Assembly: GCA_963728395.1 (NCBI GenBank)
Contig: CAVSJJ010000008.1
Location: forward strand, 422,227 to 486,226
Origin: an uncultured Actinomycetota bacterium
GTDB taxonomy: Bacteria; Actinomycetota; Actinomycetes; Actinomycetales; Dermatophilaceae
Direction of reading: 5' to 3'
Length of the DNA stretch: 64,000 nt
Shown here: positions 1 through 64,000 of the stretch, one piece after another
Layout: each line of letters starts with the position of its first letter
Position numbering within the stretch: position 1 is the first letter of the stretch
Notes under the pieces: generated by a model
What the model saw: only the letters and a program-made list of their open reading frames with translations
Database searches by the model: none
Told to the model about the DNA's origin: nothing
Translations under genes and position numbers: made by a program

Positions 1-2
1 TC

Positions 3-2615
3 GAGGTCGACGGCCTCGACGTCGCCGGCGGCGAGCCGCCCCGGTTCCGGGCCTTCTGGGCCCACGACCGTGCCGAGGAGCGGCAGGCCCTCATCGACTT
101 CGTCGCCTACCTCTCCCGCCGCCGGCGGCGCTGGCCGGACCTGCACGTCTACCACTACGCGGCGTACGAGCCGAGCGCGCTGCTCCGGCTCGCCGCACGC
201 CACGGCGTGTGCGAGGACGACATCGACCAGCTCCTGCGGGACGGCGTCTTCGTCGATCTCTATGCCGTCGTGCGCGCGAGCGTGCTTGTCTCGCAGCGCT
301 CCTACAGCCTCAAGAAGCTCGAACCCCTCTACATGGCGGGCCGCTCGGGCGAGGTGACCAAGGCCGACGAGTCGATCGTGGTCTACCACGGGGTCATCGA
401 CGCACGCATCGCCGGCCGCACCGACGAGGCCGCGCGGCTGCTCGCCGGCATCGCCTCCTACAACGAGGACGACTGCGTCTCGACCCTCCGACTGCGCGAC
501 TGGCTCCGGGCCCGGGTCGCCGGGGAGGAACCCACCCCCTCCGCTGGTAGCGACCTGCCCGTGCCGGTGCCGCTCGAGGTCTCGGAGCGACGGCAGCGGC
601 TCATCGACCTCGAGGGCCGGCTGCGCGCCCTCGTCGCGGACGTCAAGCCGCACGAGCGCACGCCCGCGCAGCAGGCGGTCGCCATGGTCGCCGCGTCCCT
701 GCAGTTCCACGCGCGCGAGGACAAGCCGTTCTGGTGGCGACACTTCGACCGGCTTCGCTCGCCGGTCGGCGACTGGGTCCCGGAGCCGGGTGTCTTCGTC
801 GTCGACCGATGCGAGGTACTGCAGGGGTGGCACCGGGCAACGGCGCGACAGCGACCGCGGCGCATCGTCCGCCTGTCCGGGGAGCCGCTCGGCGGCGTCC
901 TCCTCGGCCCGGGTGTCGCCGTCTCGGCGATCTACCGGGACCCTCCGCCGGCCGGGGTGACGACCCAGCCGGGGCACCTCCACGCGCGCTCCTCGGCGAC
1001 GATCCGGATCCTCGAGGCCGAGGAGACGATCGCCCCCAACGGCCGGACCCATCAAGTCCTCACCCTCGAGGAGCTCCAACCCAGGGGGGGCGAGGACCAC
1101 GTCCACGAGCCGGTCGCCCTCGTGCCGTCCGGAATCATCCCGACGACGAAGATCGACGATGCCCTCGCCCAGCTCGCCGAGGAGGTCCTGGCCGCTCATC
1201 CGGCCCTGCCGAACCGGGCCGGGCTCGACCTGCTCGCGCGGCGGCCACCGCGGCTGCGCACCCGTGCTGCGCTGCCGCGGGTCGGGGCCGGGCCGGACCG
1301 GTTCGCCGACGCGATCACGGCGGCGGTGCTCGACCTGGACTCCTCGATGCTCGCCGTCCAGGGACCGCCGGGGACCGGCAAGACCCACGTGGGGGCCCGG
1401 GTCATCGCCACCCTCGTGCGCCACCACGGATGGCGGGTCGGGGTGAGCGCCCAGTCGCACGCGGCCGTCGAGAACCTCCTCACGGCGGTCGTCGCCGCCG
1501 GGGTGCCGGGCGGTCTCGTCGGCAAGAACGGCGTCGAGACCGACAACCCGACCTGGACCGACGTCGGGTCCTCCGACGCCCTCGCCGAGTTCGCCGCCGG
1601 GAGAGAGGCGGGCTACGTCGTCGGCGGCACCGCCTGGGACCTGTGCCACGAGGGCCGGGTCGGCCGCGGCGACCTCGACCTGCTCGTCGTCGACGAGGCC
1701 GGGCAGTTCAGCCTCGCGAAGACCCTCGCCGTCTCGGTCGCCGCCGAGCGGCTCCTCCTCCTCGGCGACCCCCAGCAGCTCCCCCAGGTCTCGCAGGGGT
1801 CCCACCCCGAGCCGGTCGACGACTCGGCCCTCGGCTGGCTCATCGGCGACGCGGCCGTGCTGCCCTCCTCCCGCGGTTACTTCCTCGAGACGACCTGGCG
1901 GATGCATCCCGCCCTGACCGCGCCGGTGTCCCGGCTCGCGTATGCCGGTCGGCTCCGCTCCGAGGAGCGGGTCACCCGGGCCCGCCGGCTCGACGGCATA
2001 CCGGCGGGGCTGCACATCCGCGAGGTCGAGCACCACGACAACGCCACCCACTCCGCCGAGGAGGCCGACGTCGTCCTCGCGCTCGCCCGGGACCTCCTCG
2101 GGCGGACCTGGGTCGCTCCCGACGAGCCCGCCGGTGCCGCCGGCCGGCCGCTGCAGGAGCGTGACCTGTGCGTCATCACCCCCTACAACGCCCAGGTCAC
2201 CCTGCTGCGCGCCGTCCTCGACGAGGCCGGCCTCACCGAGGTGCCGGTCGGCACCGTCGACAAGTTCCAGGGTCGGCAGGCGGTCGTCGTCCTCGTCTCG
2301 ATGGCGGCCTCGGCGCACGCGGACGTCGCGCGTGGGGTCGGGTTCCTCCTCGACCGCCACCGGCTCAACGTCGCGATCTCCCGCGGGAAGTGGGCGGCCT
2401 ACCTCGTCCGGTCAGCGGCCCTGACCGACGCGGTGCCTCGCTCGCCCGCCGAGCTCATCGCGCTCGGCGCGTTCCTCGGGCTGGCCGATCAGGCCTCGTC
2501 GTCCTCCTCGTACGCGATGGCGAACGGGTCCTCGGCGAAGGTCTCGTCGTCGTCCTCGTCGTGGGCGAGCGCCACGGTGAAGACGCGGACCGGCTCGAGC
2601 CCGTCGGTGTCGTAG
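3..2615 (+). CDS. RecB-like (TM0106-type) nuclease domain fused to Upf1/DNA2-like SF1 helicase; 5' end lies outside the window
   Basis: Frame is open from nt 3. The N-terminal region looks nuclease-like (HVYHYAAYE, YNEDDCVSTLRLRDWL). Helicase motifs: AVQGPPGTGKTH, LLVVDEAGQ, LLGDPQQLPQV, TWRMHP, VGTVDKFQGRQ, LNVAISRGK. The last ~40 Ser-rich codons are antisense to the next gene and may not be genuine. Confidence 0.85.
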   Translation, partial: EVDGLDVAGGEPPRFRAFWAHDRAEERQALIDFVAYLSRRRRRWPDLHVYHYAAYEPSALLRLAARHGVCEDDIDQLLRDGVFVDLYAVVRASVLVSQRSYSLKKLEPLYMAGRSGEVTKADESIVVYHGVIDARIAGRTDEAARLLAGIASYNEDDCVSTLRLRDWLRARVAGEEPTPSAGSDLPVPVPLEVSERRQRLIDLEGRLRALVADVKPHERTPAQQAVAMVAASLQFHAREDKPFWWRHFDRLRSPVGDWVPEPGVFVVDRCEVLQGWHRATARQRPRRIVRLSGEPLGGVLLGPGVAVSAIYRDPPPAGVTTQPGHLHARSSATIRILEAEETIAPNGRTHQVLTLEELQPRGGEDHVHEPVALVPSGIIPTTKIDDALAQLAEEVLAAHPALPNRAGLDLLARRPPRLRTRAALPRVGAGPDRFADAITAAVLDLDSSMLAVQGPPGTGKTHVGARVIATLVRHHGWRVGVSAQSHAAVENLLTAVVAAGVPGGLVGKNGVETDNPTWTDVGSSDALAEFAAGREAGYVVGGTAWDLCHEGRVGRGDLDLLVVDEAGQFSLAKTLAVSVAAERLLLLGDPQQLPQVSQGSHPEPVDDSALGWLIGDAAVLPSSRGYFLETTWRMHPALTAPVSRLAYAGRLRSEERVTRARRLDGIPAGLHIREVEHHDNATHSAEEADVVLALARDLLGRTWVAPDEPAGAAGRPLQERDLCVITPYNAQVTLLRAVLDEAGLTEVPVGTVDKFQGRQAVVVLVSMAASAHADVARGVGFLLDRHRLNVAISRGKWAAYLVRSAALTDAVPRSPAELIALGAFLGLADQASSSSSYAMANGSSAKVSSSSSSWASATVKTRTGSSPSVS

Positions 2616-2818
2616 ACCGCGTCCATCCCGAACGCCTCGAGCAGCTGTTCGACGGCGCCCTCCGCGTCGAGCACCTCGGCGTCGGCCCGGTCGGTGGTCT
2701 CCGGGTGGTTCAGCCGGTACGCGGCCCGCCCGGACTCCAGCACCGCGGCGAGGTCGCAGACGCGGAAGTCCCACCGGCCCACGACGCTGACGATCCCGTG
2801 TTCGCTGCGCTGCTTCAT
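2489..2818 (-). CDS. small acidic hypothetical protein (109 aa)
   Basis: ATG ORF with natural-looking composition and an acidic tail (DEDDDETFAEDPFAIAYEEDDEA). No family recognised. Overlaps the helicase ORF 3' end by 127 nt. Confidence 0.45.
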   Translation of the reverse strand: MKQRSEHGIVSVVGRWDFRVCDLAAVLESGRAAYRLNHPETTDRADAEVLDAEGAVEQLLEAFGMDAVYDTDGLEPVRVFTVALAHDEDDDETFAEDPFAIAYEEDDEA

Positions 2819-62744: not shown

Positions 62745-62785
62745 GAGGTAAGCCTCTCATTACCTGACGCGATCGAGCACGAGGT

Positions 62786-64000
62786 TCACGTCAGGACGTG
62801 CTCGGGTCGCGCCGGGAGACCGGTCTGCGGGTCGTAGGCCGGCACCCACCGGGCCAGCCAGAGCCCACCGAGGACGACGAGGCCCCCGACGCCGACGCAG
62901 GCGAGCGCCAGCCCGGCGAGCGTCGCGACGAGGCTGACGAGCAGCGGCCCGCCGTTCGCCCCGACGAGCGCGAGAAGTCGCCACGCGCCGAGGAACTGGG
63001 CCCGGCCCTCGAGCGGCGCCACGTCGGCCCCGAGGGTCATGACGAGCCCGGAGCCGAGCCCGGAGCCGATGCCCATCGCGACGGCCACCGCGCCGACGCC
63101 GACCAGCCCGGTGGTGAGCGGGAGGACCATCGTGCCGAGGCCGAGGACGACGACGGTCGGCACGGCGACCCACACCCGGCCGAAGCGGTCCATGACCGAC
63201 CCGGCGGGATAGAACAGGAGCATCTCGATCCCGCCGGCGACCCCGAAGACGAGGGAGGTCTGCGCGGCCGAGAGCCCCACCGACTCGGCCCACAGCGGGA
63301 CGACGGCGACCCGGGTGGCCCGGGCGATCCCGATCACGAGGACGCCGATCCCGATGGTCAGCAGCGTGCGCCGTTGCGACCTGACGACGTCGAGCACCCG
63401 GACCGGGCGCACCTCGCGGGTCGCCGCCTCATGGCCCGCCGTCACGTCGAAGGTCGCCCGGACCAGGAGGACGGTGAGCAGCCCGGCGGCCGCCGAGACG
63501 GCATACGCGCCCTGCGGACCCCAGACGGCGATGACCGGGGCACCGACGAACGGCCCGAGGAACAGCCCGACCCGATGCACCCCGCCGAGCGTCGACATCG
63601 CCCGGGCCCGCATGGGCACCGGCGCCGCGTCGGTGAGGTACGCCTGACGGGCCAGGAGGAAGACGGCCTGGGTCAGGCCGAGGACGGCCAGGGCGGCGAC
63701 GAACACGAACAGCCCCGGGGCCACCATCGCGACGAGTGAGGCGGCGGCGTCGACGGTGGCCGCGAGGACGAGCGCGCGGCGCTCCCCGATCCGGGCGACG
63801 AGGGCGCCGGCCGGCAGCGCGACGACGAGCTCGGCCAGCGAGGAGACGGCGACGGCGAGGGCGGCGAGGGCGACCGACGCGCCGAGGCCGCGCGCCGAGA
63901 GCGCGATGACCGGCATGACCGCACCCGTTCCGACCGAGGCGAGGGCCGAGGGCCCGAACGCGGGGAGGGCGATGCGGCGTAGCGAGAAGTCGGCGGCGGC
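62786..64000 (-). CDS. MFS transporter, N-terminus beyond the window edge
   Basis: About 11 TM segments. The frame stays open upstream of the first Met to nt 64000 (…FSLRRIALPAFGPSALASVGTGAVMPVIAL). Confidence 0.8.
   Translation of the reverse strand, partial: AAADFSLRRIALPAFGPSALASVGTGAVMPVIALSARGLGASVALAALAVAVSSLAELVVALPAGALVARIGERRALVLAATVDAAASLVAMVAPGLFVFVAALAVLGLTQAVFLLARQAYLTDAAPVPMRARAMSTLGGVHRVGLFLGPFVGAPVIAVWGPQGAYAVSAAAGLLTVLLVRATFDVTAGHEAATREVRPVRVLDVVRSQRRTLLTIGIGVLVIGIARATRVAVVPLWAESVGLSAAQTSLVFGVAGGIEMLLFYPAGSVMDRFGRVWVAVPTVVVLGLGTMVLPLTTGLVGVGAVAVAMGIGSGLGSGLVMTLGADVAPLEGRAQFLGAWRLLALVGANGGPLLVSLVATLAGLALACVGVGGLVVLGGLWLARWVPAYDPQTGLPARPEHVLT

Follow-up and report, generated by a model that had tools for sequence, protein, structure and literature searches.

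A hyper-abundant, strand-balanced octamer with lineage-specific dialects in Dermatophilaceae and related actinobacteria

The octamer in the window

The stretch of DNA analysed here, referred to as the window, comprises 64,000 nucleotides of contig CAVSJJ010000008.1 from an uncultured member of the Dermatophilaceae (Actinomycetota). Its base composition is 72.4% G+C, and a gene map obtained with a codon log-odds model trained on confident G+C3-rich open reading frames (ORFs) indicated that 87% of the window is coding. The window contains 44 exact copies of the octamer CGGCATAC and its complement GTATGCCG, of which 25 lie on the plus and 19 on the minus strand. Both the count and the orientation had been given in the original prediction and were reproduced by exact search, while the listed positions were right for all copies but two, which showed one-base slips (7985 instead of 7984 and 63498 instead of 63499).

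Dinucleotide-preserving shuffles of the window (n=100) gave a mean of 0.90 copies and a maximum of 3, against the 44 observed. Synonymous-codon shuffles (n=1000), which left all protein sequences and the pooled codon usage unchanged, gave 2.15 +/- 1.41 copies with a maximum of 8, and codon-order shuffles gave 1.19. Where a codon-preserving shuffle predicts about 2 copies, 32 are seen in the coding sequences (CDSs), so that the suspected excess stands. A maximal-order Markov expectation was rejected as a null model and replaced by the codon-preserving shuffles and by outgroup frequencies. Such a null is uninformative because the octamer itself provides nearly all its sub-words: 45 GGCATAC, 47 CGGCATA and 55 CATAC were counted in the window, essentially all from the 44 octamers.

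The word is sharply delimited. Its 24 one-mismatch variants occur 0-8 times apiece in the window, which is background, except for the codon-friendly variant CGGCATCC with 18 copies. The flanks carry no information apart from a purine at position -1 (37/44); among 264 sites pooled with those of relatives, A is found there in 34% of the cases versus a background of 14%, and the fuller form of the word is R-CGGCATAC. Because the word is sharp and its flanks are unconserved, it is a bare word of 8-9 bp rather than the core of some longer repeat. An interspersed repeat of the repetitive extragenic palindrome (REP) or miniature inverted-repeat transposable element (MITE) type was ruled out, the flanks being uninformative beyond -1 and 70% of the copies being intragenic in four frames. 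The spacing of the copies is Poisson-like (coefficient of variation, CV, 0.98); regular spacing or periodicity was ruled out, this value being indistinguishable from random.

The original prediction had placed the word in all three reading frames. Its coding contexts were confirmed; more precisely, the copies occupy four of the six possible frames, with none in the other two. One frame is strongly favoured, 21 of the 32 coding copies reading xxG TAT GCC Gxx (Tyr-Ala). Antisense to the respective gene, this reading was found in the CDS of an SF1 helicase at 1940-1947 (-; GCG TAT GCC GGT, A-Y-A-G), in the CDS 5009-5896(-) at 5707-5714 (+; TCG TAT GCC GCG), in that of MoeA at 8693-8700 (+; GGG TAT GCC GTG), in a penicillin-amidase CDS at 12804-12811 (+; GCG TAT GCC GCG) and in a Na+/H+ exchanger CDS at 14393-14400 (-; GCG TAT GCC GTG). 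Three such copies lie in a gene for a DUF4011/SF1 helicase/restriction endonuclease (REase) protein (19992-24242, -), at 20495-20502 (+; GGG TAT GCC GCC), 20720-20727 (+; CGG TAT GCC GCC) and 23546-23553 (+; GTG TAT GCC GCG), and two in an MFS gene (24453-25784, -), at 25403-25410 (+; CGG TAT GCC GCC) and 25634-25641 (+; ACG TAT GCC GGC). Further to the right, copies of this kind were located in the integrase gene of an integrative element at 27106-27113 (+; GCG TAT GCC GTC), in the MobF/TrwC relaxase gene at 34855-34862 (-; GCG TAT GCC GAG) and 36943-36950 (-; GGG TAT GCC GTC), in the CDS 38691-39266(-) at 38924-38931 (+; CGG TAT GCC GGT), in a phosphoesterase gene at 41029-41036 (-; GCG TAT GCC GTG), in a GAF-ANTAR regulator gene at 52211-52218 (-; CTG TAT GCC GCG), in the CDS 57083-57451(-) at 57370-57377 (+; CTG TAT GCC GTC), in a short-chain dehydrogenase gene at 58122-58129 (-; GGG TAT GCC GCG) and 58233-58240 (-; CTG TAT GCC GCG), and in an MFS gene (62786-64000, -) at 63499-63506 (+; GCG TAT GCC GTC).

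Five coding copies read GGC ATA Cxx (Gly-Ile): at 1994-2001 (+) in the SF1 helicase (sense; GAC GGC ATA CCG, D-G-I-P, with the rare ATA), at 4829-4836 (+) at the 3' end of an AI-2E transporter CDS (GGC ATA CCG, W-D-G-I-P-G), at 9801-9808 (-) in the UGPase gene (sense; GAC GGC ATA CCG), at 10703-10710 (+) in the 5-formyl-THF cyclo-ligase gene (sense; GGC ATA CCG) and at 36037-36044 (+) in the relaxase gene (sense; GTC GGC ATA CGC, V-G-I-R). Four copies, all in sense, read xCG GCA TAC: at 5042-5049 (-) in the CDS 5009-5896(-) (GCG GCA TAC, A-A-Y), at 12277-12284 (-) in the penicillin-amidase gene (ACG GCA TAC), at 22179-22186 (-) in the DUF4011 gene (GCG GCA TAC) and at 35964-35971 (+) in the relaxase gene (GCG GCA TAC). 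The last two, also in sense, read CGG CAT ACx (R-H-T), at 7984-7991 (-) in MoeA (CGG CAT ACG) and at 42757-42764 (+) in a cytolysin-like gene (CGG CAT ACC).

These readings run against the codon usage of the organism. Tyr is encoded by TAC in 290/340 cases (85%) in the window, and the TAT:TAC ratio in the context G-TAY-GCC-G is 21:2 versus 29:288 elsewhere; 21 of the 50 TAT and 5 of the 7 ATA codons fall within the octamer. In six further genomes the ratio in the word context is 61:3, and in six outgroup loci it is 1:5, the whole context being about 10 times commoner in the six word-using genomes than in the outgroup loci. In this context the octamer overturns codon preference about 100-fold. 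The TAT:TAC reversal, the codon nulls, the conservation of sites and the data from 13 other genomes all support the earlier proposal of a force acting on the DNA word rather than on the protein, and the earlier rejection of a general Tyr-Ala codon-pair preference is upheld. The exact octamer is created, and then kept, wherever coding permits; it adjusts neighbouring third positions and sometimes alters the amino acid, as in the UGPase gene, where GGG CTG CC (Gly-Leu) in relatives is replaced by GGC ATA CC (Gly-Ile) with the rarest codon.

Twelve copies lie outside the called genes. A thirteenth, at 60855-60862 (+), is also non-coding, because the ORF call there is over-extended across the leader of a c-di-AMP riboswitch (60711-60906, minus strand). 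As only 12.9% of the window is non-coding, the octamer is 2.6-fold denser there (P=0.008 with 12 copies, 0.003 with 13). The non-coding excess already noted (12/44) is thereby confirmed, and the octamer accumulates faster in non-coding DNA. The non-coding copies are found 10 nt 5' of the AI-2E transporter start (3567-3574, +), 5 nt past a stop codon in a hairpin between convergent genes (15215-15222, +; -50.6 kcal/mol, z -3.9), 1 nt past the stop of the MFS gene and adjoining a strong hairpin (24444-24451, -), directly 3' of a 15-bp hairpin (25792-25799, -; z -5.1), within the integrative element as the last copy before a 7-kb empty stretch (27773-27780, -), 25 nt past a stop codon between convergent genes (43652-43659, +), between two minus-strand genes (44779-44786, -) and in the 48-nt spacer between two plus-strand genes (58454-58461, +). 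The hairpins in or against copies 15215 and 25792 are very stable.

The remaining four form two inverted pairs, for which hairpins had been proposed. The copies at 48092-48099 (-) and 48114-48121 (+) are the left and right arms of a perfect stem of 11 bp or more between convergent genes, with a near-palindromic spacer of 14 nt (-25.3 kcal/mol, z -1.8), and those at 18218-18225 (+) and 18273-18280 (-), left and right of a 47-nt spacer, are able to pair (-36.7 kcal/mol, z -1.7). Pairing is possible in both, but the energies are unexceptional at this G+C content and the hairpins are a minor feature.

Conserved sites and dialects among relatives

Relatives were collected by a UGPase scan with one genome per species, which yielded 80 loci of about 20 kb each (L-numbered); no recorded protein is identical to the UGPase of the window. 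The closest relative is a metagenome-assembled genome (MAG), L030, with about 85% nucleotide identity over 20 kb. The next ones belong to the Intrasporangiaceae/Dermatophilaceae, namely Knoellia, Tetrasphaera/Nostocoides, Terrabacter and Intrasporangium. The record L005 bears the title 'Rothia sp. ARF10', yet the UGPase tree places it with Knoellia (L006), whose word sites it matches in every position; its name is probably wrong.

In 13 related genomes the octamer is the top or among the top lineage-enriched octamers, with 5-12 copies per 10 kb, while it is virtually absent from loci of similar G+C content in Propionibacteriales, Demequina, Cellulomonas, Dermabacteraceae and Actinomycetaceae. 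The pooled density is 78 per 100 kb in the clade (14 genomes) versus 1.4 in high-G+C outgroups. Each single-mismatch neighbour is present at <=8 per 100 kb in the pool, again except for CGGCATCC; one-off variants are moderately above their outgroup frequencies, as expected if perfect copies decay and are regenerated. Orientation is balanced in each of the 14 loci and in the pool (133:131), and for the 25:19 of the window the probability of 25 or fewer under a 75% strand bias is 0.006. The lack of strand skew first seen in the window thus holds throughout. None of the skewed control words that could fix the replichore of the window survives multiple testing in 64 kb.

Metagenome contigs were retrieved by one hairpin pair, GTATGCCG-N4-30-CGGCATAC. 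About two dozen of them, with 66-73% G+C, contain 0.4-1.9 further copies/kb on both strands, and the 78 contigs below 66% G+C (388 kb) contain 24 extra copies in total, so that the result is bimodal. Since the retrieved contigs come from arbitrary genome positions, the density in the window is typical of the genomes concerned. That the enrichment could be a peculiarity of the window is contradicted by the 13 genomes and by these contigs, and the force on the octamer is common to a clade of Dermatophilaceae/Intrasporangiaceae, actinobacteria of high G+C content from soil and wastewater.

Conservation of the word in orthologues, proposed earlier as a check, was clearly observed. Fifteen of the 16 alignable window sites, four intergenic ones included, are identical in L030 (85.6% nucleotide identity; P=2e-6), where 36% of all 8-mers and 43% of the 8-mers with three A/T are identical; in the reverse comparison 15/18 sites of L030 are identical in the window. 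Among four lineage-specific sites between the two, three are one base off and one is three bases off. The copies at 1940, 3567 and 15215 are kept in L030, the first also in L002, L024 and L025, and the hairpin arm opposite copy 15215 reads ATATGCCG in L030. Copy 5042 is represented by CGGCGTAC in L030, whereas 8 relatives have the octamer itself at the site of copy 5707.

At deeper divergence, conserved Tyr-Ala positions mostly carry CGGCATAC in the genomes that use the word, and mostly CGGCGTAG or CGGCGTAC, with the normal TAC codon, in the genomes without it. Thus copies 8693 and 14393 are common to most relatives of the same dialect (see below); relatives of the other dialect mostly have CGGCGTAG/CGGCGTAC (TAC codon) at the former, and the others mostly CGGCGTAG at the latter. 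At other sites the precursor was unrelated and several bases were substituted, in part with a change of amino acid: relatives have CGGCGCAC and other unrelated sequences at copy 7984, and GGG CTG CC (Leu) at copy 9801.

Twelve related genomes without CGGCATAC use CGGCATCC instead, strand-balanced and at 6-15 per 10 kb; the two words are referred to as the AC and the CC dialect, respectively. In the CC dialect the context G-GAY-GCC-G (Asp-Ala) has a GAT:GAC ratio of 46:4 versus 118:2005 overall. On the UGPase tree the CC genomes form one clade, sister to the group of the window, and the dialects follow phylogeny; a second and separate CC group, the Humibacillus pair L026/L027, branches within the CGGCATAC users. 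At an orthologous His-Gly-Ile-Arg site, the AC genomes L004/L005/L006 have GGC ATA CGG and the CC genomes L007/L009/L012/L020/L022 have GGC ATC CGG. The CC clade overall retains CGGCATAC at 9.2 per 100 kb versus 1.4 in outgroups. Specificity was switched by one base, from CGGCATAC to CGGCATCC, at least twice, old sites having decayed while new ones arose. Both words are present in an Ornithinibacter MAG (L014; CGGCATAC 3.5 and CGGCATCC 9.8 per 10 kb), which could be a genome caught mid-transition or a chimeric bin, and neither is in use in the loci L003 and L029.

Related words are found further afield. CGGCGTAC is enriched in four Nocardioidaceae loci (6.5-13 per 10 kb versus a median near 0.5), where G-TAC-GCC-G occurs 22 times in 64 kb versus 5 times in 126 kb of outgroup. 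CGGCGTCC is raised more weakly, over a high codon-friendly background, in Micropruina, Desertihabitans and one Cellulomonas, and is only tentatively regarded as a further dialect word. The four words CGGCATAC, CGGCATCC, CGGCGTAC and CGGCGTCC match the pattern CGGC-R-T-M-C.

Close pairs (<=120 nt) in the AC clade are inverted rather than direct in a ratio of 20:5, or 15:5 without orthologous duplicates (P=0.04). Taken in the direction of the adjoining or nearest gene, the single non-coding copies of the window read CGGCAUAC in 8/8 cases. Orientation by transcription was nevertheless rejected as a chance effect, the ratio being 15:6 in the AC clade (non-independent orthologues, P=0.08) and 13:16 in the CC clade.

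A possible DNA-transfer tag and competing explanations

A directional, sequence-specific force makes and keeps the exact octamer on both strands and chromosome-wide, at about 1 per 1.3-1.5 kb. Its specificity is heritable, with single-base changes between sister lineages. As to the nature of this force, it is proposed, tentatively and by analogy with known systems, that the octamer may be an uptake or transfer tag sustained by molecular drive. The octamer would then be read by a sequence-specific DNA-transfer machine. The leading candidate is a receptor in the uptake apparatus of natural transformation, as with the DNA uptake sequence (DUS) of neisseriae and the uptake signal sequence (USS) of pasteurellaceans, followed by a dsDNA translocase of the FtsK/TraB type reading 8-bp words. 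Fragments of conspecific DNA bearing the word would be preferentially imported and recombined, and repeated rounds of biased import and homologous recombination would enrich perfect copies genome-wide. The octamer would at the same time become a barrier to foreign DNA. The extreme sharpness of the word would thus be the product of repeated biased import and recombination, and not of a tolerant DNA-binding protein.

Plausible readers are present in the phylum, since the related actinobacterium Micrococcus luteus undergoes natural transformation via Flp/Tad pili (PMC4322843) and 8-bp repeats serve as the target of TraB translocases from actinomycete plasmids (PMC4447253). The TraB recognition sequences (TRS) of the clt locus resemble the octamer in being exact, non-palindromic 8-bp words read by an actinobacterial DNA translocase (PMC4447253). 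They differ in that they are a few clustered direct repeats in plasmid clt, whereas the octamer is dispersed and its close pairs are more often inverted.

The original prediction had likened the octamer to DUS. Most testable features match, and the dialects can be added to them; foreign-DNA depletion and the link of inverted pairs to terminators are not clear-cut. The DUS of Neisseriaceae is likewise a short, non-palindromic, exact word, present about once per kb and equally on both strands. It too is enriched between genes, has preferred reading frames and shows one- or two-base dialects that follow phylogeny (PMC3630211); its inverted pairs in terminator-like hairpins and its lower density in some foreign DNA may have counterparts in the octamer. 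The USS of Pasteurellaceae has a hyper-abundant, strand-symmetric 9-mer core that shapes codon and peptide usage, exists in two lineage-specific types, and displays a moderate one-off excess (mutation-drive balance), as does the octamer. The anatomy of DUS and USS is described in PMC3630211 and 10.1101/2025.10.24.684340. The host of the octamer differs from those of DUS in belonging to another phylum with a monoderm envelope. GTATGCCG(T) has ATGCCG(T) in common with the 5' end of the neisserial AT-DUS. The latter we take to be ATGCCGTCTGAA, and the overlap is probably a coincidence.

The mobile DNA of the window bears on the barrier that a transfer tag would create. An integrative element occupies 26277-39525 in a tRNA-Arg(CCT) gene, bounded on both sides by directly repeated copies of the 3' half of the tRNA (26307-26349 and 39483-39525; at least 30 nt identical, up to about 43 nt if it reaches the tRNA 3' end). 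It encodes an integrase (26366-27514), two overlapping tyrosine recombinases (29049-31348) and the MobF/TrwC relaxase (34394-37330). An array of small ORFs of low G+C content at 31.4-34 kb looks like a later nested insertion. The stretch of 27.8-34.85 kb, which covers the nested recombinase/cassette segment and had been singled out as free of copies, is indeed empty (0 in 7 kb; a-priori Poisson 0.004). In 1-kb bins whose G+C is well under the genomic value, the octamer is less frequent (0/4, and 0.52/kb vs 0.83/kb in the clade). Tetrasphaera phage TJE1 (49 kb, 58% G+C), one phage of this host group, has 2 copies, which is chance level. A scan of viral contigs for hairpin pairs gave chance hits only, at all G+C contents, and is uninformative on the phages of these hosts. 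The homologues of the relaxase on plasmids are at best 42% identical, too distant for sites to be compared.

Several observations weigh against a transfer tag. The empty 7-kb stretch is not significant as the maximum gap among 44 random points (P=0.23), the whole element (26.35-39.5 kb) has 7 copies in 13.2 kb, which is near the density of the host, and the relaxase gene alone has 4 in 2.9 kb; depletion of the mobile region was rejected as a significant result on these grounds, and of the earlier claim only the gap itself stands. The octamer has 8-9 bp where DUS have 10-12 bp, and its flanks are uninformative beyond -1, whereas the USS consists of 9 bp with AT-rich flanking tracts. About half of the DUS/USS fall in predicted terminators (10.1101/2025.10.24.684340). 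The share of octamer copies in terminators is far smaller, only 27-30% of the copies being non-coding and few of them in inverted pairs, and the close pairs of the CC clade show no inverted excess (12:12). No competence or pilus locus was seen within the 64-kb window. Finally, import bias and intracellular function are unseparated here, because all the in-silico features would also be expected of other genome-wide words under strong selection, HIP1 among them.

A HIP1-like word is the main rival, although it is considered rather unlikely. The octamer would in that case be the recognition site of a resident DNA modification or sequence-specific repair system (an orphan methyltransferase, or repair of the very-short-patch (VSP) type) with no role in import, its abundance being kept either by selection for this role inside the cell or by repair biased in favour of the recognised sequence. 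The class of signal is the same: an exact octamer, over-represented, conserved beyond codons and distorting synonymous usage (PMC5861425, PMC4390886). HIP1 of cyanobacteria (GCGATCGC) is 15- to 300-fold over-represented against codon preference, with orthologous sites conserved, and its function is still debated (PMC5861425). A one-base switch between sisters also fits a changed target-recognition domain of a methyltransferase or repair enzyme, and a lytic phage does not carry the word above chance. HIP1, however, is palindromic, embeds methyltransferase sites and is reportedly quasi-periodic, whereas the octamer is asymmetric, contains no such site and is Poisson-spaced. Being non-palindromic, it is without a palindromic methyltransferase core, and a continuous asymmetric specificity of 8 bp is unusual for methyltransferases. 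VSP-type repair predicts a strongly depleted transition neighbour, which is not seen (CGGCGTAC, 6.8 vs 9.3 per 100 kb), and many sites come from precursors that differ at several positions, amino-acid changes included. A simple deamination or VSP origin was ruled out on these two grounds. CGGCATGC is equally depleted in both dialect clades and is hence unrelated. The window has no methyltransferase or Vsr gene, 64 kb being a small sample.

The possibility that the octamer is a signal for an intracellular DNA motor or nuclease, Chi-like for AdnAB/RecBCD or like the FtsK-orienting polar sequences and SpoIIIE recognition sequences (KOPS/SRS) for FtsK, which would mark self DNA in repair, segregation or defence, is judged improbable. 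In its asymmetry and its length of 8 nt the octamer resembles Chi and KOPS, and in being lineage-specific it resembles Chi (PMC8022716); more generally it shares with Chi and KOPS/SRS, which are asymmetric 5-8-mers, lineage specificity and chromosomal over-representation. A phage at chance level and conserved orthologous sites would also agree. Chi and KOPS/SRS are nevertheless replication-skewed and few-fold enriched, and the octamer is unskewed and enriched about 50-fold. To our knowledge, every Chi or KOPS/SRS motif characterised so far points along the direction of replication, and no skew was found in the window (25:19, P=0.006 vs a 75% bias), in the 14 loci or in the pool (133:131), the replichore of the window being without a confirming skewed control word in 64 kb. 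The enrichment of Chi itself is far below 50-fold.

Slightly less probable still is a binding site for an abundant chromosomal protein, nucleoid-associated or condensin-loading, with thousands of individually selected sites. The density on both strands, the conservation of sites and the presence of copies in coding as well as non-coding DNA would suit such a protein. Architectural proteins normally accept degenerate sites, however, and single mismatches of the octamer fall to background; the spacing is Poisson-like (CV 0.98) and not regular, and a switch of thousands of sites in sister lineages would be hard to achieve by site-by-site selection. That the octamer is a functionless by-product of codon-pair usage or of mutation biased by context, for instance through deamination turning GTACGCCG into GTATGCCG, is scarcely credible. 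The commonest coding form is indeed one CpG C-to-T change away from the codon-optimal GTACGCCG. Against this, about 2 copies are expected when codons are preserved, and the word is denser outside genes than within them. Fixation extends to the synonymous G at the flank and to the other reading frames, precursors differ by multiple substitutions, and all eight positions are conserved. Outgroups that match in G+C and codon usage contain 1.4 copies per 100 kb.

Coming back to the transfer tag, it would imply, with somewhat greater reserve, that Actinobacteria exchange DNA by a sequence-specific system that has a recognition code of its own, made up of CGGC-R-T-M-C words, together with a putative receptor and dialect barriers. 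The words would be assigned as CGGCATAC/CGGCATCC to Dermatophilaceae/Intrasporangiaceae, CGGCGTAC to Nocardioidaceae and possibly CGGCGTCC to some Propionibacteriales. The reader would act in natural transformation or in cell-to-cell transfer of dsDNA, and the dialects would switch via single-base changes of specificity, separating lineages.

Full-text searches gave no relevant literature match for the four words or their complements. No literature was found either on uptake sequences or over-represented octamers in Actinobacteria, Tetrasphaera, Intrasporangium, Knoellia or Janibacter, though a description elsewhere is possible. We know of no families besides Neisseriaceae and Pasteurellaceae in which uptake sequences have been described. 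A survey of 2025 covers uptake sequences in these two families only (10.1101/2025.10.24.684340). On present evidence, the octamer extends the hyper-abundant genomic words of the DUS/USS/HIP1 type to another phylum, adds a new family of words and shows dialect switching with unusual clarity.

Uptake sequences are central to ideas on why bacteria take up DNA. If the octamer were one, it would be the first such system outside the Proteobacteria, in Gram-positive high-G+C bacteria, with hosts that include the phosphate-accumulating Tetrasphaera/Nostocoides group of wastewater. As a third independent case, in a monoderm phylum with 72% G+C, with clear-cut dialects and with sister lineages in which the word changed recently, it would make the phenomenon general. 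The AC, CC and word-free sister genomes represent a natural experiment for locating the reader protein, and the octamer could aid the transformation of intractable actinobacteria, including phosphorus removers of the Tetrasphaera type. Even without a role in import, it reveals an unexplained major force on the genome that inverts codon preference and changes amino acids in thousands of places, and offers a practical marker for foreign DNA and metagenome binning.

Further words and neighbouring genes

Other words of uneven abundance were encountered in the loci. The SphI palindrome GCATGC is part of CGGCATGC, a word whose frequency in either dialect clade is about 2.5-fold below that of outgroups; this rarity may be restriction avoidance unrelated to the octamer. 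Abundant octamers of their own were found in Demequina (L047/L069), Luteococcus (L033/L034) and Brachybacterium (L071) loci: CGCATCGG/GCATCGGC with 21-26 copies per 21 kb and strand-balanced, GGCCAGCA/CCAGCAGG with 18-23 copies and possibly skewed (7:16), and CGATCGCG with 25 copies. Lineage-specific words may thus be common in Actinobacteria. In L039, L040 and L041 (Desertihabitans, Tessaracoccus and related), the Chi-like words GGTGGTGC, GGTGGTGG and CTGGTGGC exceed the median of the remaining loci 4-7-fold. A Dermatophilaceae MAG (L013) contains GACCCGGA 11 times in 10.7 kb with a strand skew of 9:2; this word is presumably the TraB recognition 8-mer of the Streptomyces plasmid pSVH1.

Some genes of the window deserve mention in their own right. 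The gene at 19992-24242 (-), in which four octamer copies are located, codes for a 1416-aa protein with DUF4011, an SF1 helicase core and an MTES_1575 restriction-endonuclease-like domain, which from its sequence looks like a defence or repair helicase-nuclease. The c-di-AMP riboswitch (ydaO-type; 60711-60906, -) is situated upstream of an NlpC/P60 hydrolase gene. Just beyond the right end of the integrative element, at 40562-43626, the phosphoesterase (phospholipase-C-like) gene adjoins the thiol-activated-cytolysin-like gene, a pair that is unexpected for an environmental actinobacterium. At 15291-17777 (-), an S26 signal-peptidase-like protein with Laminin_G_3 is encoded next to a camelysin/TasA-like M73 protein, and the two genes are predicted to be a SipW-TasA-like pair.

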